DNA from: Candidatus Nanoarchaeia archaeon
Lineage (GTDB): Archaea > Nanobdellota > Nanobdellia > SCGC-AAA011-G17 > GW2011-AR17
DNA: 64,000 bases
Assembly (NCBI GenBank): GCA_028706745.1
Contig: JAQTVM010000004.1
Coordinates: 5,137 to 69,136, forward strand
Direction of reading: 5' to 3'
Shown: piece after piece, positions 37,488 through 53,504 of the stretch
How positions within the stretch are numbered: the stretch's first letter is position 1
Layout: every line of letters starts with the position of its first letter
Program-made: the position numbers and the translations under genes
The notes under the pieces: generated by a model
The model's input: the letters and a program-made list of their open reading frames with translations, nothing else
Database searches by the model: none
What the model was told of the DNA's origin: nothing

Positions 37488-37488
37488 C

Positions 37489-37560: not shown

Positions 37561-37650
37561 TCGAGCGGCGGACGGTCTCGAACGATAGTGAGAATACCGG
37601 CCGGCGCATATTCATAAGCAATTAGCAAATTCGTCCTCGCTTACTATGCT

Positions 37651-37923: not shown

Positions 37924-38076
37924 TTTATCATCTCCTTTGCTGGAAAATCATAATGTTTTGCTATTTAAGCTTTCGCCCTGAAAAATGCGTTTTTTCCGTC
38001 GTCAGATAAAAATTTGCATTAATTTTGAAAATAGGCGCATTCTTCCGGAAAAATGCGCAAAAATTCGGAAAGAGGT

Positions 38077-38958
38077 TTATAAAACTCTATCCTGGTTCAA
38101 TTCTTCAAGAAGCTTCTTCTGCTCTTCCTCCTGCTGTATCTCTGCAGGGGTCTTTACTTTTGTTGTGTTGCCTTCAACCCATCCTTCTCTTGCAAACGCC
38201 CTGCAGATTGACTTTGACTTGTCGTCATTCAAAAAGCAGAGGTTGTACCTGTCAATGTCAGATACTGCAATGCTTGTCTTTATCGGAGACCAGCAGGAAA
38301 GCACAATATCCTTGTTTGTCTTTATGACTTCATCAAGAATTCTTTTTGCTTCTGAGATATTGCCTGTATTGCCGTACTCCAGCCCTAAATTAAGATACCT
38401 GCACGGATGCGGGTATAAGTCATACGCCTTTTTTCCGTATTCAAAGCTTTCCTTGTTCCTGTTCATTGTGTAATATGATATTCCCAATACATCAAGGCAG
38501 AATGTGTCGTTTGCTTCTTCCTGTATTATGCTTTCGCATAATTCAGCAGCCCTTCCGTATTCTCTTAAGTTGATGCTTGCGAATGCCAAATCTTTCTGTA
38601 CAGAAGTGTCATTTATTACAAGTTTTTCAAGTATTTCTTTAGCTCCTGAGAAGTTTGAAAGCACTATTGCAGCTTCTGCTTTTTCTTTATTGCTTTCGCT
38701 CCACATAAATACGTGTTCTGCTGATTCTGTTGCTTTTTCTGCTTTAACACCAAGTGTTTTTGCGCAGTCTTCCAATGTTGTTGGCAAGCCGGTAACCACA
38801 AGGCAGTCTTTTATTGCAGACACCTCATTGATTTCCCATTGCTTTAAGTCAGGCTGTCCGGGATATGGCAGCAAGACTATTATTATTGTAAATATGAGGA
38901 TCAAAGTGTATTGTATGAGCCTTGACTGCTTTATCCTGTGCTTGATTCGATGGTACAT
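38077..38958 (-). CDS. membrane-anchored TPR-like protein
   Basis: N-terminal TM helix (LIQYTLILIFTIIIVLL) and repeated helical pairs (GRAAELCESIIQ, GISYYTMNRNKESFEYGKKAYDL, NLGLEYGNTGNISEAKRILDEVI). Confidence 0.5.
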   Translation of the reverse strand: MYHRIKHRIKQSRLIQYTLILIFTIIIVLLPYPGQPDLKQWEINEVSAIKDCLVVTGLPTTLEDCAKTLGVKAEKATESAEHVFMWSESNKEKAEAAIVLSNFSGAKEILEKLVINDTSVQKDLAFASINLREYGRAAELCESIIQEEANDTFCLDVLGISYYTMNRNKESFEYGKKAYDLYPHPCRYLNLGLEYGNTGNISEAKRILDEVIKTNKDIVLSCWSPIKTSIAVSDIDRYNLCFLNDDKSKSICRAFAREGWVEGNTTKVKTPAEIQQEEEQKKLLEELNQDRVL

Positions 38959-38995
38959 CGTAGAATAGTATGTAATAATTGTTTTAAATGGTTTT

Positions 38996-39550
38996 CTATT
39001 TCTTCTTTATAACCGCTGTCTTCAGAATCAATGCATTAGGCACCAAAACAATGTCTTTTTCTTTTGTCTTAATCTTTGTTTCTATCGTATCAATTGAAAC
39101 AACAGTGCCTGTGACAGCTCCAATGCTTACCTTGTCCCCTTCCTTAATTGCTCCCTTGGAATGTATGTAAAACCCTGCAGTGATGTTTGGTATGAAGTCC
39201 TTGAAAGCCAGTATTATGAATATTATAATTATTATCAGCATCACAACAAGTATTATCTGCAGTATTGTGCTTGCAAGCCCCAATACATTTAACGCCCATA
39301 TTATTGTCATGAAGTAAAGCAGGTATTTCAGGATGTTTGATGCAAATTCCTCAAAAGGAATCTTGACTCCCTGCTCTTTTAACACGGCGTTTATCTCAAA
39401 ACTGTGCAAAAGCTTTTTGAAAAGCTTGCTCACTATGATGCTTCCTATTACTCCCAATATGAGAACAACAAGCGCAGCCACTAAATTTATCATGAAAGCT
39501 GACAATGCTTCCGGCCTTGCTATTCCCTGTATATAATCCGTGAATGCCAT
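38996..39550 (-). CDS. small-conductance mechanosensitive channel (MscS family)
   Basis: Three TM helices followed by GDKVSIGAVTGTVVSIDTIETKIKTKEKDIVLVPNALIL (MscS beta domain). Confidence 0.75.
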   Translation of the reverse strand: MAFTDYIQGIARPEALSAFMINLVAALVVLILGVIGSIIVSKLFKKLLHSFEINAVLKEQGVKIPFEEFASNILKYLLYFMTIIWALNVLGLASTILQIILVVMLIIIIIFIILAFKDFIPNITAGFYIHSKGAIKEGDKVSIGAVTGTVVSIDTIETKIKTKEKDIVLVPNALILKTAVIKKK

Positions 39551-39573
39551 ATGTTATTGGTGGGGATTGGTGT

Positions 39574-40347
39574 TTAAAAAGCTTGCTTCTCCGCCTCTTC
39601 CAGAAACTTCTTTCCATGAACCAGCTGCCTTGCATCTTCTATGAGCTTGTCCATTTCATCTGCCTTCTGCGGAATCATTGCCTTGAAGAACATTGACAAA
39701 GGCACTATCTGCGACTCAGAAGCCATTTTCAATAAAACCTTTGGCTCAAATCCCTTTGCCGGCGATATAACTCCTTTAAGTATCAGCATGTTAATCCAGT
39801 CAGTAATCTGCTTTGACATTATTTCGTATTCAACCTCTGCCTCAAATATCTCGCCGTATCTCTCGTGTATCTTTTTTATCATGGCTTTTGGCTCAAGGTT
39901 AAGCTTTGCGGATTCTTCCCAGTCATTATGCTTCATGTCATAAGGGCAGGAGGAGCAGTTAAGCGTGATTGTGCCTGAAGTGATTCCTCTTGCATTTGGC
40001 GGAAACAACCTGCAGATTAGCGGTCTTTTTGCATATATTGAGCAGGCATTGAATTTAAGAAAAGGGCATACATTGTGCGCAAGGGCGTACTGCAGAATAA
40101 TCGCTGTTTTTGAGTTTGTATCATAGACTAATTTATATGGCGTCATCTTCAGCTTAATGCCTTCTTTCTCAGCTTCTTCAGCCATTTCTTTTGCTTCCCA
40201 GTCAAATAAGGTTAATGACGGCTTGCAGCAGTGCAGGATGTATGCTGAGTTGAAGTATCCCGGAAACAAGCCTGCGTCCTCCTCCAGTTGCAGTGTGCTG
40301 CAGCAGTGGGCGCATTTCTGGCACTTGAATTTCTCGTCGAGCTTCAT
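39574..40347 (-). CDS. YkgJ-family Cys-cluster protein
   Basis: The N-terminal FKCQKCAHCCS (CxxCxxCC) is typical of the family. Further Cys residues are spread along the 257 aa. Confidence 0.55.
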   Translation of the reverse strand: MKLDEKFKCQKCAHCCSTLQLEEDAGLFPGYFNSAYILHCCKPSLTLFDWEAKEMAEEAEKEGIKLKMTPYKLVYDTNSKTAIILQYALAHNVCPFLKFNACSIYAKRPLICRLFPPNARGITSGTITLNCSSCPYDMKHNDWEESAKLNLEPKAMIKKIHERYGEIFEAEVEYEIMSKQITDWINMLILKGVISPAKGFEPKVLLKMASESQIVPLSMFFKAMIPQKADEMDKLIEDARQLVHGKKFLEEAEKQAF

Positions 40348-40464
40348 GTTAGCTAGAATGTGTTTTAAAGTATATATACCTTGCGAGTGAAACGAGCGAG
40401 GTTGAGAGCGAAGCGAACATATATATTGCTAATTTTTATAAATACAAAAGCATTCTAAATATGC

Positions 40465-42033
40465 ATGAAACTACCCGCACTAATCCTTCTAGCCGTGCTT
40501 TTTGCTGTTTCTTTTGCAGCAGCCAATGAATACGCAGAGCAGTTGAATGAAGCAATTGAAGATGTAAGGGAAAGAGCTGCTTCCGGAGAGGAGATTGATT
40601 TGGCTGCCTTGGAGCAGAGAAAGGCAGAGGCAATGACAGAGATTGCAGAAAGGGCAAGGGAAACCTGCAGGGAAACCCCAGAGAAATGCTCCTGCGAAGG
40701 AATAGAGGATGCAGATGCAAGGGCAGAGTGCGAAGCTGCATTGCAGGAAGGGCTTGATGAGATGGAGTCTGCAAAGGAAAAGGCGAAACAGTTAAGAGAA
40801 AGAATAATGGCAAAATGCGCTGAGAATTTTGATGAATGTTCGTGCGATGAAATAGATGATGAAAAAGGAAAAGAGGAATGCGAAGCAGCTATTGAGAAGG
40901 CAAAGTACGAGGCAAAAGAGGCAAGGGACAAGGCAATAAGCAGCTGTGTTTCAAATCTTGATGCCTGCGACTGTTCATCTGTTGAAAATGCGCAGGGCAA
41001 GCAGGAATGCGAGGCAGAAAAAGCAAAAGCTCTTGGCTTGAAATCAAAAATAGAGTCAGCGTGCAATGCAGACCCTTCATTATGCTCCTGCTCTGAGATT
41101 GAGAATGATGAAGGAAGAAAGGAATGCGAAAATAAGAGAAAGGAAGCAATCAAGATGGCTGAAGGCGAGGTTTTGGCTGCCCTGAACAAGTGCTTCAATG
41201 ATGTTGATGCCTGCGACTGCAACGCTTTGGAATTGCCAAAGCAGGAATACATTGATTTCTGCGAGGCTGAAAAGAATTACGGCATATCCTGCAGGGACAA
41301 GGGACTGTATTGCGATGAGCTGGAAGAGATGGAATTGACACCTCCGTCACTGCCTTCTTTTTTGCAGCCGATATTCAAGAAGACTTACAAGCAATTGATT
41401 GAAAAAGAAAAGGAAAAGGGGGCAAAAGAAGGCGCAAAGATTATGGAGCAGTGCATATTAAAGCCGTCAGAGTGCGATTGTTCTTTAACTCCTGAGTATG
41501 CGCAAAGCTTTTGCGAGCAGAAAAAGCAGCTGCAATTGAAATGCCTTGCTGACAATTATGATGCGTGCATGGAATTGGATGCAACCCCTGACTTGCCTGA
41601 GGGAATGCCTAAATTCTCTGTAGGGCTTTTCTCAAAAATAGCATCTGCTGCCAAGAAAATTCAAAAGGGAATAGTGCAGTCCCGCGCTGCATCAAAAGTA
41701 GGCGATGCAATAATGGCTTGCATGGATTCTGCAGAATCCTGCGACTGCTCTGTTGCGCCTGAAGGCAGATGGAGGGCATTCTGCGAGCACAAGAAGGAGC
41801 TGATTGGTCAGTGCAGGGGCGAGAAGAATTATGACGCCTGCTTTGCCTTGGATGAGGAGCCTGTAATTACAGAAGATGTGCCTGACGTGATTAAGAATTA
41901 CGTGAACAAGAACATTGTGCCAAAGGTTGATGAGAAGAAGGCTTTGATATATAATGAGATGAAGGCGGGCACAGTGTGCGAGAATGTGGCGACTTTGAAG
42001 GAATGCAGGGAAGTTTATTACAGAAAAGCTTAA
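40465..42033 (+). CDS. secreted protein built of CxC...C(E) repeats
   Basis: Signal peptide MKLPALILLAVLFAVSFAAA. At least 7 units of the type C(S/D)C-x(8-14)-(E/F)CE. Examples: CSCEGIEDADARAECEAA, CSCDEIDDEKGKEECEAA, CDCSSVENAQGKQECEAE, CSCSEIENDEGRKECENK. Confidence 0.65.
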   Translation: MKLPALILLAVLFAVSFAAANEYAEQLNEAIEDVRERAASGEEIDLAALEQRKAEAMTEIAERARETCRETPEKCSCEGIEDADARAECEAALQEGLDEMESAKEKAKQLRERIMAKCAENFDECSCDEIDDEKGKEECEAAIEKAKYEAKEARDKAISSCVSNLDACDCSSVENAQGKQECEAEKAKALGLKSKIESACNADPSLCSCSEIENDEGRKECENKRKEAIKMAEGEVLAALNKCFNDVDACDCNALELPKQEYIDFCEAEKNYGISCRDKGLYCDELEEMELTPPSLPSFLQPIFKKTYKQLIEKEKEKGAKEGAKIMEQCILKPSECDCSLTPEYAQSFCEQKKQLQLKCLADNYDACMELDATPDLPEGMPKFSVGLFSKIASAAKKIQKGIVQSRAASKVGDAIMACMDSAESCDCSVAPEGRWRAFCEHKKELIGQCRGEKNYDACFALDEEPVITEDVPDVIKNYVNKNIVPKVDEKKALIYNEMKAGTVCENVATLKECREVYYRKA

Positions 42034-42062
42034 ATATTACTTTGTATATACTAAGTAATACC

Positions 42063-42374
42063 ATGCAAGTAATAAGCCTAAAGATGGAGGATTCTCTTCT
42101 GGATGAGATAGATGCTTCTTTGGCAAAGCACAGGTATAGCACAAGAACAGAGTTCTTAAGGGATGCAATAAGGTGCAAGCTGACGGATTTTGAGAAAGAG
42201 GAGGCTATAAGGAAGCTGACTGCGATGAAAGGTTTCCTTAAAGGAAAGGCAAGGATGAGCGAAGAGCAGGCAAAGAAGGAGATAGAAGAAGAGCTTCTTA
42301 GCGGCGTGAACAGCAGGAAAGACGATATTGCTTTTGCAAGATTCGCCAAAAAGCTTGGCGCAAAATTAGAATAG
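42063..42374 (+). CDS. ribbon-helix-helix (CopG-like) protein
   Basis: MQVISLKMEDSLLDEIDASLAKHRYSTRTEFLRDAIRCKL. Convergent with the PIN gene, with a 9-nt overlap. Confidence 0.7.
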   Translation: MQVISLKMEDSLLDEIDASLAKHRYSTRTEFLRDAIRCKLTDFEKEEAIRKLTAMKGFLKGKARMSEEQAKKEIEEELLSGVNSRKDDIAFARFAKKLGAKLE

Positions 42375-42779
42375 TTCTTCAGGCAGTTTGATATCAATTC
42401 CGCGGATTAAGAAAAAATGCTTGTCCCTTGTAATAAGCACTGCGGAATTGTCTCTTGCGATTATTGCATGAAGCGCATCGCTTACAGGAATGCCAAGCAT
42501 CTTTGCAGTTAAAATCGCTTCCTTCTTCTGGGATTCCGAGTAAAACACCATTTTCAATAAAATAGCAGGGATATGGGAAACCAGATTCTTGATTTGTACT
42601 TCTGTGTAGAATTTCTTCAGCTCTTTGTGGTTAAGGCTTGATATTAATATTATCCCTTCTTCAGCGATTATTTCATTTATAGCCCTTAATGCCCATTCTC
42701 CCAATGGCCTGAATCTATCCTTTCTGTTTTCGAAATAGTCAATCCAGATGCAGGTGTCCAAATAATACCTCTTTTGCAT
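42366..42779 (-). CDS. PIN-domain protein (VapC-like)
   Basis: MQKRYYLDTCIWIDYF, SDALHAIIARDNSAVLITRDKHF. Confidence 0.75.
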   Translation of the reverse strand: MQKRYYLDTCIWIDYFENRKDRFRPLGEWALRAINEIIAEEGIILISSLNHKELKKFYTEVQIKNLVSHIPAILLKMVFYSESQKKEAILTAKMLGIPVSDALHAIIARDNSAVLITRDKHFFLIRGIDIKLPEELF

Positions 42780-42790
42780 TCTGTGGGCGC

Positions 42791-42842
42791 TTATGCAGAG
42801 GTTATATATAATGGTTTGTCCGGAAAATTGCTCCTTTTTCCG
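42791..42842 (-). promoter_or_regulatory. shared promoter module, copy B
   Basis: ttatgcagaggttatatataatggtttgtccggaaaattgctcctttttccg. The TATA box lies ~25 nt upstream of the PIN ATG at 42779. Confidence 0.5.
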
Positions 42843-42914
42843 ATTTTAATGAAGGATTTGCGGGTTTAAAAAGAAAAGCTGAAAAAGTATGAAGAAAAGA
42901 TGAAAAAAATAATA

Positions 42915-43039
42915 CGCCACGGGTGGGATTTGAACCCACAAACCCTTGCGGGCACTGAATCATTGCGTAAAGCGTGGTGATCATAAGCACTTAGGCGTAC
43001 TTAGCAATCCAGCGCAGTACCAGGTTGTGCCACCGTGGC
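42915..43039 (-). tRNA. tRNA-Ser (anticodon GCU) with ~41-nt intron at the canonical 37/38 position
   Basis: Hand fold. Acceptor GCCACGG/CCGUGGC. Anticodon stem CUGGA/UUCAG with UUGCUA | intron | A. Long variable arm UGCCCGCAAGGGUUU. T arm GUGGG-UUCAAAU-CCCAC. Discriminator G. Confidence 0.85.
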
Positions 43040-43089
43040 ATTTGGCTAATTATAGGCATTAACGTTTATTTATATGCTTTTTGATAGCA

Positions 43090-43235
43090 GAAGGCGGGCC
43101 TTCGGCATGAAGATCGTGGTTAAAGTGTTCGGGCATACGGCGGGTATTGGAACTCTGTTCCAGACCCCGCCGCTACGGCAGGGTTCAGGGGCGCAGCCCC
43201 TGTGGCTTTCCCTACCTCCAAAACCTTAATAAACC
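43090..43235. ncRNA. GC-rich structured intergenic segment; candidate small RNA of unknown class
   Basis: No ORF. Three hairpins: GAAGG-CGGG-CCTTC (43090-43103), CGGCGGG..TGGAAC-TCT-GTTCCA..CCCGCCG (43138-43172) and CAGGGG-CGCAG-CCCCTG (43186-43202). It is clearly more GC-rich than its surroundings. Confidence 0.25.
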
Positions 43236-43256
43236 CTCAATCTACCATCTAAACCC

Positions 43257-44012
43257 ATGGCTTTATACATAATAGGGCTCGGACTGGGCTCTGAAAAGGA
43301 CATTACTGAAAAAGGACTGGAAGCAGTAAGAAACTGCAACTTCGTCTACATAGACACATACACTTCAATACTTCCCGCCGAACTAAAGAAATTAGAGGAC
43401 TTTTACGGCAAGAAGATTATACCTGCATCAAGAGAATTGGTTGAGAAGCAGGCAGAGGAGGAGATGCTGAAGAAAGCAGTAGAGAATGACGTTGCTTTTT
43501 TGGTTGTAGGAGATGTTTTCTCGGCAACAACTCACGTTGATTTGGCTTTAAGGGCGAGAAAAGCAGGACTCAAGGTTCATCTGATTCACAATGCATCTAT
43601 TTTGACAGCAGTAGGAGATACCGGATTGTCTTTGTACAAGTTCGGAAAGACAACTTCAATACCTTTTGAAAACAAGGATGTTGAAGCGCCGTATGATGTA
43701 TTGAAAGAAAATGCAGGAATGCACACCTTATTCTTATTGGACTTGAAAGTGGAAGAAAACAAGACAATGTCTGCGAAGGAAGCAGTTGATTTTCTTTTGA
43801 AGGTTGAAGACAAGAGAAAGGAAAAGGTATTCACTGAGGAAACAATGTGCGTTGCGTGCGCAAGATTGGGATTTGAAGACGAGGAAATTGTTTATGCGGC
43901 TGCAAAGCAGATATTGAAGGAAAAGATAAGCAAGTTCCCGCAGTGCCTGATAGTTCCCGGCAAGCTCCACTTCATGGAAGAGGAGTATCTGAAGGGCTTT
44001 GAGGTTAAATAG
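43257..44012 (+). CDS. dph5: diphthine synthase
   Basis: MALYIIGLGLGSEKDITEKGLEAVRNCNFVYIDTYTS..., LVVGDVFSATTH. Tetrapyrrole-methylase fold typical of Dph5/DphB. Confidence 0.9.
   Translation: MALYIIGLGLGSEKDITEKGLEAVRNCNFVYIDTYTSILPAELKKLEDFYGKKIIPASRELVEKQAEEEMLKKAVENDVAFLVVGDVFSATTHVDLALRARKAGLKVHLIHNASILTAVGDTGLSLYKFGKTTSIPFENKDVEAPYDVLKENAGMHTLFLLDLKVEENKTMSAKEAVDFLLKVEDKRKEKVFTEETMCVACARLGFEDEEIVYAAAKQILKEKISKFPQCLIVPGKLHFMEEEYLKGFEVK
43932..44008 (+). repeat. 77-bp direct repeat, left copy (authentic in-frame 3' end of dph5)
   Basis: 76/77 identical to 46874-46950. Confidence 0.9.
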
Positions 44013-44022
44013 CTAAGATGCA

Positions 44023-44628
44023 TTATAATACCTGCATTATTTTTTCTACCAAATCTTTTTGGATTTTTGGAATATCTCTATTAGTAATTATTAGTTCCAT
44101 TTCACAATTTTGTTTTAATAGTTCATAATAATTATCTCGTATTTTCTCAACATTTCTAATGTTTGTTGAGAATAATGATCCTATTCCTGTAATTGCATTT
44201 CTGCTTTGGCTTCTGCTAAAAGATTCTATGGTATTGCAATCTAATAAAAAGGTTAAATTAGGTGTTGGCGCCCCATATTTCTTGTTTATATTTAATATCT
44301 CTTGAGACCTTAATCCGCAGCTTGTTTGGTATGCGGCACTCGTATAATAATATCTATCAAATATCAATAAATCATAATTAGACTTACGAAAATTATCCTT
44401 AAATGTTTGTGCTCTCGCTTTTGCGAACCCCTCTATATCTTCGATTGAAAAAGGCAATTTAGGTCCTTTTGTTTGATACCATGCTTCTACCTCTCTTTTG
44501 AAGGGCTCATAATGTTTTTCTACTATTCCTAATGTCCTAATCTTAGTATTCTTGAAATATTCTATGAGTAACCGGAATTGTGTTGTTTTTCCGACTCCGC
44601 TGCATCCTTCCAAGCATATTAGATCCAT
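44023..44628 (-). CDS. thymidylate/dNMP kinase-like P-loop kinase
   Basis: MDLICLEGCSGVGKTTQ (P-loop as in Tmk) and IFDRYYYTSAAYQ (Tmk DRY..S..AYQ block). I chose the start at 44628; the longer track ORF would overlap the divergent gene. Confidence 0.65.
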   Translation of the reverse strand: MDLICLEGCSGVGKTTQFRLLIEYFKNTKIRTLGIVEKHYEPFKREVEAWYQTKGPKLPFSIEDIEGFAKARAQTFKDNFRKSNYDLLIFDRYYYTSAAYQTSCGLRSQEILNINKKYGAPTPNLTFLLDCNTIESFSRSQSRNAITGIGSLFSTNIRNVEKIRDNYYELLKQNCEMELIITNRDIPKIQKDLVEKIMQVL

Positions 44629-44692
44629 ATTATAATCACGGAGTAGTGAATAATGGTAAAGTTTATAAACCTTTCTTATATCTCTCAAAGGC

Positions 44693-46132
44693 ATGGCAAT
44701 TGAAGACATAATAACAGATTATACAAGGGCTAAAGACCTTATAAGGGCAAATACCTTGTTTAAGGCTTCAAATAGTGAATATGATGGTATTCAGATGGTC
44801 TTGAATTATACCCATGTAATGGAAAGTGTAGTAAAAGACTTGTTTAATATGTCCGCAAATGGAATAAAAGGGATAGGGGTATTTCTTTATGGTTCATTAG
44901 GAAGAAAAGAGATGGTTAGTGAATCTGATGTAGATATGCTTATTTTACACGAAGAAAAAGGTGAGGGTACATATAAGGAAATTAAAACACGTTTTAAGCA
45001 ATATGTTAAACCCTTTCAGTTTTGTAAAATTGATCTTCCGGAATGGGGCAACTTGGCTGAAGCGGAAATATTCGCACGAAAAAGTATAACCGAGGGGAAT
45101 CAGGTATTGGAAGCTAGATTCTTAAGCGGAGATAGAACTATAGCTAATAAAGTTGAGGATATACAAAAAATGTATGCAAGCCCAGAGAGGATGGTTAGAA
45201 ATATAGTTTTCCAAAAATTTTACTTTGAGCAGTATTTCAAACAAAGAGTAAGGGAAGGGAATGTAAATGTCAAATATTGTCATGGTGGGAGCAGGGATCT
45301 TATGTTCATAAGTTGGTTTGATACGCTTATGTCAAGAAAGTACGATAATTGGAAACAAACAAAATCAGAATCGCCAGCAGCACTTGTAGGTTTGCTTAAT
45401 CTTTATAATAATGGATTAATAGATGCACTAACGTTAAGCAGGGATATAGAAGCCCTAAACTTTAATCTTATATTAAGAAATGAAATACTGCAAGCTAATA
45501 AGGGGACTTTTGATGAAGGATTGACTTTTATGGACGATATTACAGCAATGAAAGTATTTAGCAGAATATCTGATTTTATGGGCTATATGAAGATACGAAA
45601 TCATCAGGAACTTAGAGAAGAATTTAATAGGCAAAGAAAACATATTAATGATGTTAAATCTCTTATCTGGAATCAGATGATAACAGAAAAATCCAAAGTT
45701 TTTGGGGCTAAATGGGGTTGCGATTTCAAAAGGGCATATGCTGAATCTACTCCTGAAAAAGAAAGAGCAAAAATTGCTAAAACAGATGACTTATTAATTA
45801 GAATTGCAGCAATTTGGGGAGCAACTAATTCAGGGCAGCAAAGATTACTTAGAAAACTTATGGAAAAGGAAAGAGATACTGATTCTTGGGAGATACAGGC
45901 CTCCTTTGCAACAAGCCCTTTTTGTACACCTGACTATTTGCATCATTTAGGTACTGGTCTGGCAAAAGAAATAGGCTATGGTTATATATTGAGGATAATT
46001 TGCAGAAATCCGAATGTATCTATGGAAACATTAAAGAATATAGCTAATGATACTTCTTTGGAGAGCAGATACAAACAATTAGCAGAAACTGCCTTAGAAC
46101 ATGGAAAGGATGCTGCTAATCATCAGGTATGA
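44693..46132 (+). CDS. GlnD-like nucleotidyltransferase (stand-alone, no HD/ACT domains)
   Basis: FLYGSLGRKEMVSESDVDMLIL matches the GlnD/GlnE-type GxxGRxE...SDxD motif. NVKYCHGGSRDL matches the GlnD N(I/L)K..PGG.RD block. A ~250-aa C-terminal region is uncharacterised. Confidence 0.6.
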   Translation: MAIEDIITDYTRAKDLIRANTLFKASNSEYDGIQMVLNYTHVMESVVKDLFNMSANGIKGIGVFLYGSLGRKEMVSESDVDMLILHEEKGEGTYKEIKTRFKQYVKPFQFCKIDLPEWGNLAEAEIFARKSITEGNQVLEARFLSGDRTIANKVEDIQKMYASPERMVRNIVFQKFYFEQYFKQRVREGNVNVKYCHGGSRDLMFISWFDTLMSRKYDNWKQTKSESPAALVGLLNLYNNGLIDALTLSRDIEALNFNLILRNEILQANKGTFDEGLTFMDDITAMKVFSRISDFMGYMKIRNHQELREEFNRQRKHINDVKSLIWNQMITEKSKVFGAKWGCDFKRAYAESTPEKERAKIAKTDDLLIRIAAIWGATNSGQQRLLRKLMEKERDTDSWEIQASFATSPFCTPDYLHHLGTGLAKEIGYGYILRIICRNPNVSMETLKNIANDTSLESRYKQLAETALEHGKDAANHQV

Positions 46133-46872
46133 AAATGAAACTAAAAGTAATAACTAATAATATCTGGAGATATTACGAGTGGGAAACTCGAAAAGACAAG
46201 CTTATAGCTTTCCTAAAAGAGAAGAATGCAGATCTTATTTTCCTGCAGGAAGCCGCTTATGATGAAAGAAAAAAGTGGAAAAATCAGGTTCATGAGATTA
46301 ATGAAGCATTAAATTACAAAGATTTTGCTTTCGGAAAATTAGCTGATATGACCAAATGGCACAAAGAGCCCATTAATTGGGTAATGCATATTGGGCTGGG
46401 AATACTTTCAAAATATCCCCTTAAATATTCAGAAGTTGTTCTATTGCCTATTTATCCGCAATTTGGAGATAAAAAACAGTTGGGATTCTATCATGTGGTT
46501 ATCAATACACCTGAAGGAGATATGGACCTAATTAATGTTCATTTTTCCAATAATAATGAATCTGCAAAATTGCATTTAAAGGAAACACTAAACTGGTGTA
46601 AGGAAAGGAATATTAAGCCGATAATTGCAGGCGATTTTAACATAAAGATAGTTGGACATTTGCTGGAAGAATCGCAAGAAGAATATGAAATATCTTACGC
46701 TATTAAGTCCTATAAATCTTTCTATCCAACAGAATTTTCGCATGATAAAGAGCCGATAACATTGGATTATATACTAGCTCACAAGAATAAATTCCGGATG
46801 ACTGATGTAGAATGCATAGATACAGATATTTCAGATCATAAGCCTGTGATGGCTATAATAACTATTATCTAA
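46129..46872 (+). CDS. EEP (endonuclease/exonuclease/phosphatase) family protein
   Basis: 4-nt overlap with the nucleotidyltransferase gene. Motifs: DLIFLQEAAYDE, GDFNIK, ISDHKPVMAI. Confidence 0.7.
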   Translation: MKMKLKVITNNIWRYYEWETRKDKLIAFLKEKNADLIFLQEAAYDERKKWKNQVHEINEALNYKDFAFGKLADMTKWHKEPINWVMHIGLGILSKYPLKYSEVVLLPIYPQFGDKKQLGFYHVVINTPEGDMDLINVHFSNNNESAKLHLKETLNWCKERNIKPIIAGDFNIKIVGHLLEESQEEYEISYAIKSYKSFYPTEFSHDKEPITLDYILAHKNKFRMTDVECIDTDISDHKPVMAIITII

Positions 46873-46873
46873 G

Positions 46874-46950
46874 AAGTTCCCGCAGTGCCTGATAGTTCCC
46901 GGCAAGCTCCACTTCATGGAAGAGGAGTATCTGAAGGGGTTTGAGGTTAA
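46874..46950 (+). repeat. 77-bp direct repeat, right copy (orphan dph5 3' end)
   Basis: It still encodes KFPQCLIVPGKLHFMEEEYLKGFEVK plus a stop. It differs from the left copy only synonymously (GGC/GGG, and just outside the repeat AAA/AAG and TAG/TAA). Confidence 0.9.
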
Positions 46951-46955
46951 GTAAG

Positions 46956-47471
46956 TCAATACTCCTGCAGTATCAGCGAAGCCTTGGCCACAAACTTTCG
47001 TGCATTCTCAAAAATTTCATCAAGCCTTCTTTCGCTGTAAGTCTTTATGGCTGAATACCTTGCAATCCTGCTTTCTGTTTTTGCATCCTCAAAATATTTC
47101 ACGTATTCGTCCTCAAATATCTTGTAAGACTGGCTTAGCAGTTCCAAATCTTCCTTTTCCATTTCATTAGGCACGCAAAGATATCCCAATGCAGCCTGGC
47201 AGGCGTCGTGGGTGTGCACTTCGTACCCTTTTGACAGAATCAGCGCCTTTGCGCAGTAAAGCATTGAATAATAAGAGATGATTATTGCCCAGTAATTCCA
47301 GTAAATCTTGTCCGCTTCCCCTTTCTTCGGCTTTATGTCCTTGTTGTGCTTTGCTATTAAAAGGCTGTTCTCGCCTTTCTTGAGAAAAAGCTTTATCTTG
47401 AAGAATGAATCTGATTTTGTTATAAGCTGCTTCCGCTGCATTTCATTAAAGATTTCCTTATACTCATCCAT
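46956..47471 (-). CDS. HEPN-like protein, partner of MNT at 47464
   Basis: 8-nt overlap with the upstream nucleotidyltransferase gene when started at MDEYKEIF. The helical protein has KGYEVHTHDACQAAL, similar to the paralog segment HGYESQNHECTITAV at 51643. Confidence 0.55.
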   Translation of the reverse strand: MDEYKEIFNEMQRKQLITKSDSFFKIKLFLKKGENSLLIAKHNKDIKPKKGEADKIYWNYWAIIISYYSMLYCAKALILSKGYEVHTHDACQAALGYLCVPNEMEKEDLELLSQSYKIFEDEYVKYFEDAKTESRIARYSAIKTYSERRLDEIFENARKFVAKASLILQEY

Positions 47472-48030
47472 ACACGCACTCCCAGAACCCTTCCGGATTG
47501 TTAAGCAATATATGGCTTTCAAGCGCCTGCTTCCCGACATTTTCCACTTTTTCCCTTAGCATCTGCCTTAATTCCTGCTTTGCAACGAAGATTGCATTGA
47601 TTTTCTTTTTGAACATCACTTCATATTTAGAGAATGAAATGCTTCTTTCGCCTTTAGTGTTGACAACCAGTATGTCTATGTCCGAGCTTTCCTTTTCCCT
47701 GCCTTTTGCATAGCTGCCAAAGAGCAATACAATGTCTTTTGTGTCAAGCTCTGACGCAATCTTTCTTATTATCGGCTGTTTCTCAAGAAAATCATTCTTT
47801 TCCTCTTCAGAGCTTACGGCTAGGTATGATTTTATAACGGGATTTGAGGTACTAAGCGAGACAGCCTTTGCCTTGCCGATTGCATCAAGCACAACAATCC
47901 CTTTCATTTGATTAATCGCCCTGTGGAATGTGGCATAGGGGATTTTAACTGCCTTGCTCAATGCGTACATTGTAATCTGCTTTCCCCTGTGCTTTCCGAG
48001 CCAGTTTATTATCTTCATTTTATTATCCAT
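47464..48030 (-). CDS. wHTH-fused minimal nucleotidyltransferase (MNT-type)
   Basis: LLFGSYAKGREKESSDIDILVV. The N-terminal MYALSKAVKIPYATFHRAINQMKGIVVLD is HTH-like. Confidence 0.75.
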   Translation of the reverse strand: MDNKMKIINWLGKHRGKQITMYALSKAVKIPYATFHRAINQMKGIVVLDAIGKAKAVSLSTSNPVIKSYLAVSSEEEKNDFLEKQPIIRKIASELDTKDIVLLFGSYAKGREKESSDIDILVVNTKGERSISFSKYEVMFKKKINAIFVAKQELRQMLREKVENVGKQALESHILLNNPEGFWECVYG

Positions 48031-48268
48031 TTTCAGATAATATTATCCATTATTGATATATAAACCTTGCGGATAAGCATTATCTGCATTAATCAGCGTG
48101 TCTCTGCTTTCCCTTAATAAGGATTGCTGTAAAAAAACGCGTGTTTTTCCGGCATACCTTGGAAAATCCAACAGGCGCACTGAAAATGGTTTAAAAACAA
48201 ATGCAAAAATGCATCAGAATTTCCAACCTCTCCGGAAGGCTTTATTTTTCACGAGGGGAAATCTGCGC

Positions 48269-50029
48269 TCACTTTCTCCAGTTCTGCATCAAAACAAAAA
48301 CATCGCCAGAATATTCATGCCTCATCTTGTAATAAGTTGTGTCTTTCCTGCCTAACTTCATAAGCTTTACTTTTCTTTCTGTGTTGCCAAAAGCCTCTTT
48401 TGGCCCGTAATTGATTCTTGCGTCATTGCATACCACTTGTTTTGCTCCAATGTCCATTCCAAGCTCTATTGCCGCAAGGCACATTGCTTTTATCAAATCC
48501 TTGCTTCCGTCAAAGTTCTGCTTTGGCGGCTCTATTGTGTCTATAGCCAAAACAGGCTCATTCTTGTCATTTCCCATTAAGAACATCCGCACATACCCTT
48601 TTATTTCATTATTGTGAAATGCCGTAAGGCATATTGCCCCTCTGTCGCTTAAGTCCTTGGAATAAAATTCAATGCCTCTTTTGCGTATGCATGACTCGGC
48701 AGCCTTGGTTGCTGCCTGCATCTCTTCGGCATTTTTTGTAAGCCTGAACAAGTATTCGCCTTCAATCCTGTATTCTTCAGGATGGAATTTTTCAGCAACA
48801 AGCTCAAGGGATTTTGTTTTTGGATTTTTCGGCTTTGACTGGAGCATTATTTTCATCTCATTTATCATTTCCTTCTTTATTTCTCTTTTTTCATCGCCTG
48901 AAAGGCTGCCAAACCTGTTTTTGAGCATTATTCTGCCGATTTTTTCATCAAGCCTCTGCCTTGTTGCCTTGGAAATTGCGCCCATGTATTCATCCATGAC
49001 AAGGCTGCCATCATTGTCAAGCACTCTTTTTATAAGCTGCACTTTTTTTTGCTCTTTTTCGCTTGAAACTGTTTTTTCGCAGTATTCTGCAAAGCTGAGC
49101 GCAAATTCATCCCGCATTAATTCAGGCTTTATTCCTTTTTCTCCGCCCACTGCATATTCTTTGATTGCAATAGCGCTGATATCAAACCCCATTCTTGCAA
49201 ATGGAATCCAGCCCAGCCTTTTTACTTTCTCTGTATTTACTGAAAATTCACCTGGTTTTCCGCATATTTTTTCAAGAAGTCCGCATTCATCTGAAAAAAC
49301 ATAAGAGCCAAGCTGCCTGTAAGCCCCATACTGGAGCCCCTGCTTAATTTCTTCCCTGATTCCCCAATCAATTGCCTTTTCCACAATCTTTTCTGCAATC
49401 TTTTCATCAGTCATTCCGCAGGTGCGCATTGATTCTATGCAGTCAATGGCTCTCTTGTCATCAAGGTAATTATTATGAATATGCTTCGCCATTTCAGGCA
49501 GGGATAAGTCTCCGTTCTTTTTTATCAGTTCTTCAAGAACGAATGCATCACGGCGCTCAAGATATGAATCAGCGTATCTTCCTGCTTTTGCAGACAGCTT
49601 TTTAGCAAGCATCAATGTGTATTCCAGAATTCCGTTTTGAAGCTCTTTTGGGCTCATTTTTTCATAATCCTGCATTCTTGCCCTTATTGTCCTTATTCCC
49701 ATTAACGTATCTTTTACCAGCCTTTCCTTATACTGCTTTAATGTGAAAGTTTCCATTATTGGAATACGGCGCGTATGAACCCTTTCTTTTGTCTGCCGGG
49801 TTATTTGGTAATATACTTTTGAGTCAAGGCTTGAACTTACATTGTCTTCATCTTTTTTTGGAATGCGGTCAATGAAACTCTGCATCAGCTCGTCAGAATA
49901 ATATGCGCTTGAAAATTCTGAGTATGAAAATTGAAGCAGTATGCTGTCCAGCTTTTTATCGTCAATGGTATTGATATCAGCAAAATGCTGTGACAGTGCA
50001 ATCAGTCCTTCTTCGCTTAGTATTTGCAT
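48269..50029 (-). CDS. large hypothetical protein (586 aa)
   Basis: I chose the start at 50029 (MQILSEEG), which is preceded by a GGGGGT SD. The longer track ORF would overlap the divergent promoter. No catalytic motif recognised. Confidence 0.6.
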   Translation of the reverse strand: MQILSEEGLIALSQHFADINTIDDKKLDSILLQFSYSEFSSAYYSDELMQSFIDRIPKKDEDNVSSSLDSKVYYQITRQTKERVHTRRIPIMETFTLKQYKERLVKDTLMGIRTIRARMQDYEKMSPKELQNGILEYTLMLAKKLSAKAGRYADSYLERRDAFVLEELIKKNGDLSLPEMAKHIHNNYLDDKRAIDCIESMRTCGMTDEKIAEKIVEKAIDWGIREEIKQGLQYGAYRQLGSYVFSDECGLLEKICGKPGEFSVNTEKVKRLGWIPFARMGFDISAIAIKEYAVGGEKGIKPELMRDEFALSFAEYCEKTVSSEKEQKKVQLIKRVLDNDGSLVMDEYMGAISKATRQRLDEKIGRIMLKNRFGSLSGDEKREIKKEMINEMKIMLQSKPKNPKTKSLELVAEKFHPEEYRIEGEYLFRLTKNAEEMQAATKAAESCIRKRGIEFYSKDLSDRGAICLTAFHNNEIKGYVRMFLMGNDKNEPVLAIDTIEPPKQNFDGSKDLIKAMCLAAIELGMDIGAKQVVCNDARINYGPKEAFGNTERKVKLMKLGRKDTTYYKMRHEYSGDVFVLMQNWRK

Positions 50030-50123
50030 TTTACCCCCATTTCCCCTTATTAAGTGGTTATTTATAAAGGTTGCTATGGAAAGCAATATAAAGGAAAATA
50101 TTATTTTTTCAAAAGGTGATACA

Positions 50124-50837
50124 ATGGCAAAATACGACATTTTTCTTGATGAATTAGGCAAGATAAAAGACATTGATATATGGCAGTTCACATTATCAGC
50201 TTTGGAAGCTGTTGATGACAAGTTTTACACAGAGCCTGCAAGCAGTTCAGGCAAGTACCATCCGCCTGAAGACAATGGTATTGGGGGCTTGGTAAGGCAC
50301 GTGAAGAAAGGCGTTATTGTGGTAGAGGAGTTTGCAAGAAGGGCGTTGTTTTCTGATATGGAAAAAGACATTTCAATATCCGCATTCTTATTGCACGACT
50401 CGTGCAAGGACGGAGTTGTATGGAAAGGGCACACTGATTACACTCACGGATATATTGCATATGAATGGCTTCAGCAGTTCAAGCTTGAAGATGCATTTGC
50501 AAAGGAAGTTTTGACATCTGCTGTAAGGTTTCACATGGCTCCGTGGGTTTACAGGCATCCCCCTTTTTCACAGGATACCTTTACAAAGAAAGAAATGCTT
50601 GAAAACATGGAAGAGATGCAAAGGGCTTTGACAAACCCCTCAAGGGTTGAGCTTGCTGTCCAGCACGCTGATTATTGGTCTTCGAGGAAAGAGATGTCTT
50701 ATTTGCCGGGAGCGAAGATTGTGGCTGTCCACGACATGACTCCCGAAGATATGGCAAAGTGCTCGCCTGAAGTATTGGCGAAGAGATATGGGCTGGCTGT
50801 TGAGAACGGCGTGTTGGTTCCAAGCAAACCGCAATAG
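50124..50837 (+). CDS. HD-domain phosphohydrolase-like protein
   Basis: GKYHPPEDNGIGGLVRHVK (H...) and SAFLLHDSCKDG (HD). A GGTGA SD precedes the ATG at 50124. Confidence 0.6.
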   Translation: MAKYDIFLDELGKIKDIDIWQFTLSALEAVDDKFYTEPASSSGKYHPPEDNGIGGLVRHVKKGVIVVEEFARRALFSDMEKDISISAFLLHDSCKDGVVWKGHTDYTHGYIAYEWLQQFKLEDAFAKEVLTSAVRFHMAPWVYRHPPFSQDTFTKKEMLENMEEMQRALTNPSRVELAVQHADYWSSRKEMSYLPGAKIVAVHDMTPEDMAKCSPEVLAKRYGLAVENGVLVPSKPQ

Positions 50838-50941
50838 GAAGAGGCAGGGGAAATAAGAGCTTCGCTCCTATCACCTCAAGCGGGCTGAAGCCCGCATGGC
50901 TCGCCCACATTCTGGCTCGCTACCCCTGAACCCCTTTTAGA

Positions 50942-51004
50942 TTATAATTAGGTGACTACAAATGTAGTCACCTAACTGGTATTTTAATTAAAATTGTAGT
51001 CACC
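50942..51004 (+). repeat. 63-bp direct repeat, left copy, containing palindrome GGTGACTAC-AAAT-GTAGTCACC plus a third GTAGTCACC half-site
   Basis: 60/63 identical to 52153-52215. Confidence 0.85.
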
Positions 51005-51071
51005 TGCTAAATTAAGAGTTTAGAAAGGTTTATATAGTTATTCATTATTATTGAATAATTATTCACTTAAA

Positions 51072-51656
51072 ATGAAAGATAATAACGAATCAAGAATACT
51101 CAGGTTTTTGCTTAGAAACAATGCAAGACCCGGGTTTAACATAAACAGCATTGCAAGAAATATCGGGATAAGCGTTGGCAGCGCATTCAAGATACTTAAG
51201 GAGCTGGAAAAAAGCGGCATGGCTTCTGTTGAAAGGCTTGGCAATGCCTGCTTTTACTCGCTTAATCTTGCAAATGAAGAGGCTGCCAAGAGATGCGAGC
51301 TTCTGCTTCTTGAGGAAAAAAGGGATTTAACAGGGCATGCGAAGATTTATGCAGAAGACATACAGAAGTTTGAAAATGCGGAATTGATTGTAATGTTCGG
51401 CTCTGTTTTAAGAAAAAAGGATTTTAATGATGTTGATATTTTGTTTGTTACAGATAAGGCAAGGGAGGCAAGCTCATTCTGCCTTGAAATATCAAAGGTG
51501 CGGGCAAAGCCCGTTGTCCCGATGTTATTGAAAAAAACAGACGCAGTCAGGGAATTGAGGGAAAGGAAAGAGGTTATGCAAACAATTATAAGGGAAGGCA
51601 TTGTTTTAAGGGGCGAACAAGTGTTCATAGAGATTATAAAAAATGGCAGGGTGTAA
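51072..51656 (+). CDS. wHTH-fused minimal nucleotidyltransferase (MNT-type)
   Basis: VMFGSVLRKKDFNDVDILFV. The N-terminal ILRFLLRNNARPGFNINSIARNIGISVGSAFKILKELEKSG is a wHTH. The first ATG is at 51072; the track ORF starts at a TTG at 51051. Confidence 0.75.
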   Translation: MKDNNESRILRFLLRNNARPGFNINSIARNIGISVGSAFKILKELEKSGMASVERLGNACFYSLNLANEEAAKRCELLLLEEKRDLTGHAKIYAEDIQKFENAELIVMFGSVLRKKDFNDVDILFVTDKAREASSFCLEISKVRAKPVVPMLLKKTDAVRELRERKEVMQTIIREGIVLRGEQVFIEIIKNGRV

Positions 51657-52113
51657 GACAAAGCTGGATTGGTGCCTTTCAAAAGAAACAAGGCTAAAGC
51701 GGATTGCTCCTAATCCTGTCCGTTCAAGGGAGCATATTGAAAAGGCAAAGCATAATCTTCTGGCTGCTGATTACAATGCCCAAGGCGGCTTCAGCGACTG
51801 GGCTGTTTCACAGGCATATTATGCAATGTATCATGCGCTTTTGGCGGTATTGTTCAAGCACGGATATGAGTCGCAAAACCATGAATGCACGATTACTGCT
51901 GTTGAACACCTTATCAGGATTAAAAAGGTGAAGCTGGAATTAGGGGATATTGCATTCATAAGGACAGCGGAGCAGATGAAGCCGCAGGATGCAAAATCAT
52001 TAAGGGAAGAGTTTCAGTACGGGGCAAAAACAGATGTGAATAAGGAAATTCTTGATTTTCTTGTTAAAAAGGCAAAAGAAATAGTCGAGAAGGTTGAGCT
52101 GGCGTTGCAGTGA
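51643..52113 (+). CDS. HEPN domain protein
   Basis: 14-nt overlap with the MNT gene. Segments: EHIEKAKHNLLAADYN, AVSQAYYAMYHALLAVLFKHGYESQNHECT. Confidence 0.6.
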   Translation: MAGCKTKLDWCLSKETRLKRIAPNPVRSREHIEKAKHNLLAADYNAQGGFSDWAVSQAYYAMYHALLAVLFKHGYESQNHECTITAVEHLIRIKKVKLELGDIAFIRTAEQMKPQDAKSLREEFQYGAKTDVNKEILDFLVKKAKEIVEKVELALQ

Positions 52114-52152
52114 ATTGTTAGGGAAGAGAAACCCCTGGGCCCCTCGCCCAGT

Positions 52153-52215
52153 TTATAATTGGGTGACCACAAATGTAGTCACCTAACTGGTATTTTAATG
52201 AAAATTGTAGTCACC
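52153..52215 (+). repeat. 63-bp direct repeat, right copy
   Basis: Same palindrome-containing unit as 50942-51004, with 3 mismatches. Confidence 0.85.
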
Positions 52216-53493: not shown

Positions 53494-53504
53494 TTTAAGC
53501 GCTG

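Follow-up and report, generated by a model that had tools for sequence, protein, structure and literature searches.

Islander-type islands that integrate at the 3′ ends of tRNA or protein-coding genes regenerate their target with incoming sequence, and the displaced fragment of the original gene marks the far end of the insertion (PMC4383910). The dusA islands are a further example of islands integrated at a gene 3′ end (PMC4482086). In a 64,000-nucleotide (nt) stretch of Candidatus Nanoarchaeia archaeon contig JAQTVM010000004.1 (hereafter the window), the diphthine synthase gene dph5 is followed by an AT-rich cassette of three genes, at whose far side lies a duplicate of the dph5 3′ end. As in the islands described above, the target is intact, the direct repeats derive from it, the enclosed DNA is foreign in composition, and relatives have an empty site. 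Unlike those islands, the block in the window measures only 2.9 kb, its repeats touch coding sequences, its target is dph5, and a search for an integrase inside the repeats found none. Its 81-nt repeat with a 65-nt identical core is also suited to homologous as well as site-specific recombination. Apart from the missing resident integrase, the insertion architecture is that of a classical gene-3′-end island.

DPANN archaea and Patescibacteria, symbionts of ultra-small size, depend on scavenging for their nucleotides, and much of their conserved gene content is unexplained. The DrrA/SidD pair of Legionella, in which a GlnE-fold AMPylase is encoded beside a phosphatase-fold de-AMPylase, offers a precedent for the enzymatic switch proposed below. 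The explanation that we favor, and consider fairly probable, is that the block is a laterally acquired, integrase-less cassette encoding a triad of kinase, nucleoside monophosphate (NMP) transferase, and phosphoesterase tied to nucleotide metabolism, a biochemical role that we infer. The features of the locus are these:

43257..44012, plus strand: dph5 (diphthine synthase), the intact target gene (TIGR00522 4.1e-79, 265.6 bits versus a cut-off of 114.3)
43932..44012, plus strand: left repeat copy, attL-like, the working dph5 3′ end (from sequence comparison)
44023..44628, minus strand: Tmk-like P-loop kinase, 201 aa (Thymidylate_kin 1.5e-17; the open frame continues to 44709)
44629..44692, no strand assigned: divergent intergenic region of 64 nt from kinase start to nucleotidyltransferase start (contains TTTATAA)
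44693..46132, plus strand: nucleotidyltransferase (NTase) of GlnE/GlnD/DrrA type, 479 aa (Pfam, NCBIfam; AlphaFold2 [AF2] and Foldseek)
46129..46872, plus strand: EEP-fold phosphoesterase, 247 aa (Exo_endo_phos 7e-12)
46874..46954, plus strand: right repeat copy, attR-like, the displaced, non-functional dph5 3′ fragment in its original context

Each repeat copy is 81 nt long through the stop codon (43932-44012 and 46874-46954) and begins with 65 bases that are identical between the two. The three mismatches all lie in the final 16 nt (43997, C/G; 44009, A/G; 44012, G/A), and the last of them makes the stop codon TAG in the left copy and TAA in the right copy. An earlier note on this DNA, made from the letters alone, had described a 77-bp repeat with one mismatch (43932-44008 and 46874-46950), together with GGC/GGG, AAA/AAG, and TAG/TAA differences between the copies. 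The repeat is as described and extends to 81 nt through the stops, and the three codon differences match the three mismatched bases. The 65-mer occurs exactly twice in the window and finds no match across 100 dinucleotide shuffles. A local alignment of one flank of the cassette to the other scores 153, compared to a shuffle maximum of 27.

The right copy, whose translation is KFPQCLIVPGKLHFMEEEYLKGFEVK, lies outside any long open reading frame (ORF). It begins 1 nt past the EEP stop codon, and its own stop is 1 nt from that of a convergent HEPN gene; such tight packing is as expected for the original dph5 end. At the other side of the cassette, 10 nt separate the kinase stop from the dph5 stop. 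The final 16 nt of the left copy (GGC, AAA, TAG) agree with those of the close relative L042, unlike those of the right copy. For three evenly spread mismatches, the chance that all would fall in the final 16 of the 81 nt is (16/81)^3, or ∼0.008.

The 2,861 bp between the copies (44013-46873) have a GC content of 0.333, compared to 0.422 ± 0.013 for non-overlapping stretches of the same size (z = −6.9), and this interval has the lowest GC of any same-size stretch in the window. The earlier note had estimated these values by eye as about 30% versus the low 40s. GC content at third codon positions is 0.26-0.30 in the three cassette genes and 0.44-0.52 in the flanking genes. As had been stated before, the interval holds exactly three genes, a count established by ORFs, Pfam, and NCBIfam, and no other ORF of at least 50 aa within it is plausibly coding. 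In Pfam, NCBIfam, and PHROGs, the three products match no families other than those of kinases, NTases, and EEP enzymes, and the cassette has no recombinase domain, which bears out the earlier remark that integrase and transposase are absent. The non-coding flanks, only 10 nt and 1 nt in length, appear to leave no room for an integron attC site. The 64-nt region between the divergent kinase and NTase genes, which are 13-55 nt apart at their starts in homologous loci, may serve as a promoter.

Logan contigs from two sequencing runs reproduce window positions 43967-46903 with 100% identity. Because these contigs cover both inner junctions, both junctions are present in independent read sets. Their ends lie exactly 30 nt to either side of the first bases specific to one copy, and they stop there because a k=31 graph must branch at the repeat. 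This pattern bears on the possibility of an assembly artifact, in which a free 2.94-kb circle (EEP gene, dph5-like fragment, kinase gene) and an uninterrupted chromosome were threaded together via the 65-nt stretch. An integrated copy and a circle with a separate empty site share one graph at k=31, and it is exactly at those points that the Logan contigs break. However, the cassette has no replication gene, and a 33%-GC circle would still carry an 81-nt, ∼50%-GC copy of the host dph5 end, which would make it a dph5-targeting element in any case. Homologous trios are, moreover, embedded in long chromosomal contigs (L007, 189 kb; L013; L008). An artifact of this kind is very unlikely.

The window carries an archaeal signal recognition particle RNA and intron-containing tRNAs, and its dph5 is closest to ‘Candidatus Nanoarchaeia / Nanoarchaeota’ proteins. 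The two nearest relatives have dph5 sequences 94% (L042) and 88% (L043) identical to that of the window. Neither the trio nor a second dph5 end is found at their dph5 loci, each of which has a single dph5 end, although the downstream cargo of both relatives also differs from that of the window and this empty site must be read accordingly. L042 is collinear with the window over 36251-44012 and then again over 50114-54645, with 3.4 kb of unrelated genes after its dph5. L043 is likewise syntenic on both sides and carries yet another cargo after dph5. Exact-sequence look-ups of the window dph5 and HEPN proteins, aimed at same-species contigs with an empty site, returned no records. The comparison with the two relatives places the cassette inside a larger variable region:

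44013..50113, no strand assigned: strain-variable hot spot downstream of dph5, with the cassette nested inside (comparison with L042 and L043)
46956..48030, minus strand: HEPN/minimal-NTase (MNT) toxin-antitoxin-like pair (HEPN 1.5e-5, NTP_transf_2 3.9e-9; GC 0.41-0.42)

The HEPN-MNT pair is the pre-insertion neighbor of dph5 and lies outside the cassette. Together with a 650-aa ORF it makes up the remainder of the hot spot, which has host-like GC. The best non-self match of the cassette NTase is 75% identical, in a database that includes the relative with 94% dph5 identity. The nearest trio (L003/L045) has 75% DNA identity and resides in a 29%-GC genome; in L003 the composition of the trio is like that of its surroundings (GC 0.291, flanks 0.286). 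The donor was probably a low-GC DPANN archaeon. The insertion of an AT-rich trio into a variable hot spot of a DPANN archaeon is supported by these data. The att-like duplication of the dph5 3′ end around a foreign block, as first proposed from the letters, is upheld by the repeats, by the composition, and by the two relatives that, when checked for an empty dph5 site, have neither trio nor duplication.

Three close relatives thus have three cargos after dph5 (window 44013-50113, L042 10550-13989, L043 2687-8155). Besides the trio, that of the window comprises the HEPN-MNT pair and the 650-aa ORF. The cargo of L042 consists of 421-aa and 285-aa ORFs, a CPT-like kinase, and MazG, and that of L043 of TrmB, a methyltransferase, MazG, Fic, a CPT-like kinase, and MNT.

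The cassette most likely entered by one reciprocal Campbell-type crossover between the chromosomal dph5 3′ end and a circular DNA. The circular partner would have included 81 nt or more from the 3′ end of a closely related dph5, and the exchange would have taken place within the 65-nt identical stretch. A single crossover there with a slightly different incoming dph5 end would leave mismatches only in the last 16 of the 81 nt. By this route dph5 would have been kept intact, its final 16 nt now coming from the incoming DNA, and the original 3′ end would have been pushed to the far side, where it still abuts the HEPN gene. Either host homologous recombination or an integrase supplied in trans could have been the catalyst. 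The transfer of a gene cassette into the 3′ end of a housekeeping gene without a resident integrase bears on gene exchange among reduced genomes.

The first of the three cassette genes encodes the kinase, whose start is most likely at 44628 (201 aa, in agreement with the Logan contig gene calls and with homologues) and not at 44709. Like thymidylate kinases (TIGR00041 / PF02223), the protein has P-loop, DR[YF], and S..AYQ motifs and aligns over its full length to the family profile; its GCSGVGKTT (P-loop) and DRYYYTSAAYQ motifs align to the same motifs of 3ld9. The motifs and the Thymidylate_kin match confirm the divergent Tmk-like kinase that had been noticed earlier. Unlike true members of the equivalog family, however, it scores 74.6 bits with TIGR00041, under the curated cut-off of 83.25, and its likeness to solved Tmk structures is weak (3ld9, 8e-6). 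Module-linked kinases score ∼80 bits against each other and ∼28 bits against solved Tmks, and they come out just below the TIGR00041 cut-off although they retain the P-loop and the DR[YF]..S..AYQ motif. By these scores, the kinase belongs to a dedicated subfamily that accompanies the NTase. No second tmk is present within the window.

The NTase matches the Pfam families NTP_transf_2, Polbeta, and GlnD_UR_UTase (PF08335, 24.6 bits; cut-off 21). In its Pol-beta motif, G[GS]-x(9-13)-D-x-[DE], residues G67, S68, D79, and D81 are invariant among 61 homologues. An AF2 model computed from 61 sequences is confident, with a predicted local distance difference test score (pLDDT) of 94.2 and a predicted template modeling (TM) score of 0.91. 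When this model was searched with Foldseek, the only significant fold matches in the PDB were the two halves of Escherichia coli GlnE (1v4a, E 1.5e-6 over 364 columns, TM 0.53-0.58; 3k7d, 7e-5) and Legionella DrrA (6yx5_B, 3e-5), which are enzymes that put AMP on protein tyrosine. Small-molecule Pol-beta NTases (AadA, LinB) reach only E ∼0.8, and the RNA-specific TUTases and CutA score poorly. In NCBIfam, residues 28-209 align to the GlnD N-terminus at 8.6e-14; with the model for GlnD proper (TIGR01693), only residues 26-210 align, at 48.3 bits versus a cut-off of 519. The ‘GlnD-like’ description in the earlier note, which had also suggested predicting the structure of the C-terminal region, was therefore a good one.

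GlnE, GlnD, and Legionella DrrA/SidM share with the window NTase a Pol-beta core (G-S...D-x-D) followed by a helical domain of the GlnD_UR_UTase type, and they give the best fold matches. In contrast to them, the window NTase stands alone, with no HD or ACT domain detected by Pfam and NCBIfam and no second NTase domain. It also has an extra conserved C-terminal helical region that ends in ANHQ[IV], and its family is confined to DPANN archaea and a few Patescibacteria. By its sequence and modeled fold, the enzyme belongs to the GlnE/GlnD/DrrA structural class, yet it is neither GlnD nor GlnE. By analogy with these enzymes, its most likely reaction is predicted to be the transfer of NMP to a protein side chain.

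The EEP gene overlaps the NTase gene by 4 nt (46129-46132), exactly as previously noted. To judge from its sequence, the enzyme is a bona fide EEP family member; the catalytic residues N9, E39, H136, D167, N169, D211, D234, and H235 are invariant in 53 homologues. Its AF2 model has a pLDDT of 95.9, and Foldseek confirmed the fold. The best characterized fold match is tyrosyl-DNA phosphodiesterase 2 (TDP2; E ∼1e-12, TM 0.67-0.73). Sphingomyelinases, LINE-1 endonuclease, CNOT6L, and Nocturnin are statistically equal to TDP2 in this search.

Some relatives of the EEP gene are found outside the trio. In L129 (111-170), and also in L130 and L131, a solo EEP gene is 79% identical to that of the window. 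A 36-nt remnant of the NTase 3′ end (EHGKDAANHQV) precedes it in L129, directly after a superoxide dismutase gene; this lineage has lost the kinase and most of the NTase by deletion. L125 (5311-8741) carries an EEP relative (75%) in a cluster of radical SAM, APH kinase, 243-aa ORF, and EEP, with no NTase. The closest EEP relatives (P0212, P0214, P0216), all of them solo EEP genes, do not reveal a donor arrangement with dph5 beside the kinase.

The trio is not confined to the window. The NTase has ∼90 close homologues of ∼450-490 aa that can be aligned end to end, and it is conserved at 50-56% identity over its full length. Profile scans located 35 loci in archaeal and bacterial assemblies taken at one genome per species, and 80 more in metagenomes. 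The family is small, with 83 clusters at E ≤ 1e-30 among 1.84 billion representatives, and it occurs in 35 of ∼185,000 species genomes with one locus per genome. Because of this small size and sparse occurrence, the module can be regarded as patchy and accessory rather than core. The hosts are Woese-, Pace-, and Nanoarchaeota-type DPANN archaea and two Patescibacteria. In a census of neighbors at ∼120 DPANN loci and the two Patescibacteria, a P-loop kinase and a phosphoesterase are almost always beside the NTase. The arrangements, with NTase identity to the window in parentheses, are as follows:

Clade A (at least 50%): kinase on the minus strand, NTase and EEP on the plus strand; 9 other distinct complete loci
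Clade B (35-41%): tmk, NTase, histidine phosphatase, or histidine phosphatase, tmk, NTase; genes often overlapping
Clade B, some expanded loci: tmk, methyltransferase, Nudix, tmk, NTase, histidine phosphatase
Clade C (33-36%): NTase, histidine phosphatase, APH, histidine phosphatase, AAA_18 kinase
Two Patescibacteria (26-27%): NTase, histidine phosphatase, tmk

All but two of the partial clade-A contigs fit the clade-A order; the exceptions are L010, which has no EEP gene, and L049, a short contig with the NTase alone. The phosphoesterase is an EEP enzyme in clade A and a histidine phosphatase in the other clades, where Pfam confirmed His_Phos_1, APH, NUDIX, and Tmk. That kinase and phosphoesterase accompany the NTase almost everywhere, even though the phosphoesterase family is swapped, is strong evidence for a functional triad. 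The three genes are not a random collection but represent one version of a module conserved in DPANN archaea, and the concern that they might never co-occur elsewhere is answered by the other complete loci with the same gene order. These findings define a compact, widely shared but patchy three-enzyme module around a GlnE/DrrA-type NTase. The trio had not been recognized as a named system in the earlier note, and PADLOC indeed gave only weak generic matches. No description of the triad was found among the defense-system models, viral families, and literature searched, and literature searches on DPANN thymidylate kinase with nucleotidyltransferase, or on thymidylate kinase with AMPylation, returned nothing relevant.

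In L007, a gene for a Dph6-type diphthamide synthase (5412-6080, minus strand) lies 1.3 kb from the trio, and the window trio abuts dph5. This proximity may be a coincidence or may reflect a connection with the diphthamide pathway.

In clade A, the genes on either side of the trio vary by genome and include those for PKD proteins, ABC transporters, a Na/H exchanger, tRNA synthetases, and ScpA. A tRNA gene lies within 400 nt of 13 of 150 module ends, compared to ∼1.5% expected from the tRNA density in the same loci. In L009/L006, a tRNA-Asp gene sits 75 nt away from the stop of the kinase gene, and its 3′ end is repeated over 13 nt (CTCGGCGTGGGCG) beyond the EEP gene; the contig, 374 kb long, ends at the first base of this copy. 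The contig of L012, from a different species-level genome, begins within the same end of tRNA-Asp, and a second occurrence of GGCGTGGGCGTTT lies 16 nt past the EEP gene. A 37-nt repeat brackets the trio in L007 (score 64 versus a shuffle maximum of 35). The intergenic region holding it has no Rfam match at a permissive threshold, and the repeat has no further occurrence in the fetched loci. In the non-A clades, a 46-nt repeat abuts both module ends in L059 and a 108-nt repeat brackets the module in L087. A 198-nt direct repeat in L023 (555-752 and 4055-4253) is composed of the 3′ end of the histidine-phosphatase gene of the module and 12 nt from the 3′ end of tRNA-Leu, and it resembles what a tandem insertion at tRNA-Leu would leave behind. 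Among random 2.7-kb segments from the same sequences, 0 of 45 reached z > 9. The module moves: its genomic contexts differ, are often tRNA-adjacent, and several are repeat-bracketed. None of the repeat-bracketed units contains a recombinase.

A hairpin motif, AAATTTGGG-(9-nt stem)-TGCA-(stem), was seen in unrelated genomes on both sides of kinase-NTase-phosphatase modules, ∼165-250 nt beyond the module ends (L008 8636-8665; L020 1480-1509 and 4541-4570; L046 144-172; L047 3923-3951; L087 4447-4470 and 7553-7576). It is also present away from modules, in L077 at 8112 and in L079 at 6135. The motif could be an element resembling repetitive extragenic palindromic (REP) sequences or a recombination site. 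Repeats made by this hairpin were not counted as att sites since the motif also occurs elsewhere, and a generic scan for ‘TTGGG + hairpin’ was too noisy for use.

The repeats at these loci bear on the possibility that the cassette is what decay has left of a larger integrative element or provirus, one that formerly had an integrase of its own by the att site. A regenerated target with a displaced fragment at the far end is the hallmark of integrase islands (PMC4383910), and the surrounding 6 kb are variable. However, the window repeats abut the coding sequences, at 10 nt from the stop codon of the kinase gene and 1 nt from that of the EEP gene, with no decayed DNA left over, and the same gene set is by itself repeat-bracketed in L007, L006/L009, and L012. 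Viral relatives are also lacking: a scan of IMG/VR with the NTase profile found none, BFVD gave no fold match at E ≤ 0.001, and in PHROGs the NTase and the EEP enzyme had no match while the kinase hit only a generic thymidylate-kinase family. The viral remnant suggested by the earlier note finds no backing in these searches, and descent from a decayed element is quite unlikely.

A more radical idea is that the triad mobilizes itself, its own EEP enzyme (with a TDP2/LINE-1-like fold), Pol-beta NTase, and P-loop kinase acting to insert it at the 3′ ends of tRNA or protein genes. It would then represent a new type of mobile cassette in DPANN archaea, one that needs no integrase. Self-mobilization would explain why a two- to three-gene unit is bracketed by target-derived repeats (13, 37, 46, 81, 108, and 198 nt) at unrelated sites. 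We nonetheless hold this scenario to be highly improbable.

The variable hot spot raises the possibility that the trio is a toxin-antitoxin or antiviral defense system with the type VII logic of HEPN-MNT. A toxic enzyme, for example a pool-disturbing kinase, would be neutralized by NMPylation by the NTase and reset by the phosphoesterase. The hot spot is packed with RHH-PIN, HEPN-MNT, MazG, Fic, and CPT-kinase genes, and the cassette is patchy, laterally transferred, and modular. There are weak PADLOC matches (PDC-M51B for the kinase, 1.4e-6; PDC-S09 for the NTase core), and a RelE-like ORF travels with the module in L023, where it encodes 105 aa and sits inside the 198-nt repeat bracket. Like the HEPN-MNT systems, one pair of which lies immediately downstream, the cassette is a mobile, patchy set that places a Pol-beta NTase beside a possible target enzyme. 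Unlike MNT, the window NTase is four times larger and GlnE-like, and its partners are a kinase and a phosphoesterase instead of a HEPN RNase; the MntA and HalB models match only its core motif, far below their cut-offs. Furthermore, no PADLOC-DB 2.0 system model fits the set and the EEP enzyme is without any match there. The operons of other clades, with Nudix and methyltransferase genes, look metabolic, there is one locus per genome with no viral homologues, and the full-length conservation of the NTase at 50-56% identity is unlike that of fast-evolving defense genes. We therefore regard a defense function as unlikely. The earlier note had offered a defense or addiction module as plausible, and no positive evidence for it emerged beyond the location in a hot spot rich in toxin-antitoxin genes. 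That note held up in its foreign block, its att-like duplication, its missing integrase, and its unnamed trio, and found no support in its viral remnant and its defense or addiction function.

For the function of the cassette we tentatively propose a reversible nucleotidylylation switch on nucleotide salvage, and this functional step, taken alone, is possible. In this scheme, the kinase would phosphorylate a thymidylate-like nucleotide and would be either the regulated enzyme or the nucleotide supplier. The NTase would transfer NMP to a target hydroxyl, most likely that of a protein tyrosine and possibly one on a partner enzyme, and the phosphoesterase would reverse the NMP mark or remove the product. 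Such a switch would act in an organism dependent on scavenged nucleotides. As in the DrrA-SidD pair, a GlnE-fold NTase gene has as its neighbor one encoding a metal-dependent phosphoesterase, which could undo the modification. In contrast to that pair, the phosphoesterase is an EEP enzyme or a histidine phosphatase, not a PPM-fold protein, a kinase is almost always present, and nothing about the window module points to secretion or to a host target. If the hypothesis is true, the switch would be a new regulatory mechanism in archaea.

The main rival for function is a pathway of small-molecule activation. A kinase would phosphorylate a metabolite, the NTase would make its NDP- or NMP-activated form, and the phosphoesterase would trim a phosphate, the product feeding a surface glycan, lipid, or cofactor. 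Kinase, phosphatase, and NTase together represent the classic logic of nucleotide-activated precursors, and the HldE/GmhB route to ADP-heptose follows a similar logic. This pathway would fit with the retention of the triad while its kinase (Tmk-like versus APH and AAA_18) and phosphatase (EEP versus His_Phos_1) families are swapped, with the solo EEP gene beside radical-SAM and APH genes in L125, and with the distant NTase homologues inside giant fusion proteins P0442 and P0463. However, wherever the NTase has a significant match, in sequence or in fold, it is to a protein NMP-transferase (GlnD, GlnE, DrrA), with AadA and LinB at E ∼0.8. The thymidylate-binding motifs of the kinase argue for a nucleotide and against a sugar or alcohol as substrate, and the relationship to the fusion proteins is remote (E 1e-14 to 1e-19). 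Small-molecule activation is rather unlikely.

Three giant multidomain proteins have an embedded NTase domain: P0442 (2,924 aa), P0463 (4,223 aa), and P0476 (3,487 aa). In P0442 it accompanies B12-radical SAM and APH domains, and in P0463 it accompanies HD, ARMT1 phosphatase, radical SAM, Bac_transf, and GT1 domains.

A further alternative is the healing of RNA or tRNA ends, in which the kinase would act on a 5′-OH, the phosphoesterase on a 3′-phosphate or cyclic phosphate, and the NTase would rebuild 3′ ends, thereby countering nearby RNase toxins. The three activities formally fit such a role, modules are enriched beside tRNA genes, PIN and HEPN RNases flank the site, and RtcB is encoded within a few kilobases in three loci. 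In contrast, the kinase has Tmk-specific nucleotide-binding motifs and not the features of polynucleotide kinases, the NTase is GlnE/DrrA-like while TUTases and CutA score poorly, and RtcB is never directly adjacent to the module. RtcB was dropped as a functional partner; in L013 another gene separates it from the trio. End-healing is extremely unlikely and, like the decayed integrase-bearing element and the assembly artifact, belongs to the less likely explanations.

Several observations weigh against the favored explanation of a laterally acquired cassette with a triad tied to nucleotide metabolism. No recombinase is found in or beside the cassette that would account for its integration, and, as described above, an integrated copy and a free 2.94-kb circle plus empty site give the same k=31 assembly graph. 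A bracketing repeat is missing from four of the nine clade-A loci with both flanks (L008, L011, L013, and L048). Some bracketing repeats consist of the hairpin motif that is also found away from modules and may be REP-like and not att sites. Modules adjoin tRNA-Asp in two clades, which could in part be due to old synteny. With regard to function, distant homologues of the NTase carry fused radical-SAM, APH, phosphatase, and glycosyltransferase domains, and these suggest that the chemistry concerns small molecules and not proteins. In the fold search, the EEP enzyme matches sphingomyelinases, LINE-1 endonuclease, and deadenylases as well as it does TDP2, and solo EEP genes occur (L125; L129, which retains the 36-nt NTase remnant).

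Several features of the DNA around the cassette were also recorded. Three toxin-antitoxin-like pairs lie within 10 kb: a ribbon-helix-helix (RHH)-PIN pair at 41976-42779, the HEPN-MNT pair at 46956-48030, and a second MNT/HEPN-like pair at 51024-52113. Just upstream of dph5 is an intron-containing tRNA-Ser(GCT) (42914-43040, minus strand), which was found by Rfam and an intron-aware run and missed by ARAGORN at its default setting. A 522-aa ORF rich in Cys, Glu, and Ala (40465-42033, plus strand) is repetitive, with repeated C-x-C motifs; both its GC skew and its AT skew are strong, and a long ORF runs antisense to it. The 650-aa ORF of the hot spot (48269-50221, minus strand) has no Pfam or PADLOC match. 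A 298-aa ORF (49941-50837, plus strand) has as its sole match phrog_5889, a PHROG of unknown function (4.6e-33), and from 50114 its 3′ part belongs to the stretch where collinearity with the relatives resumes.

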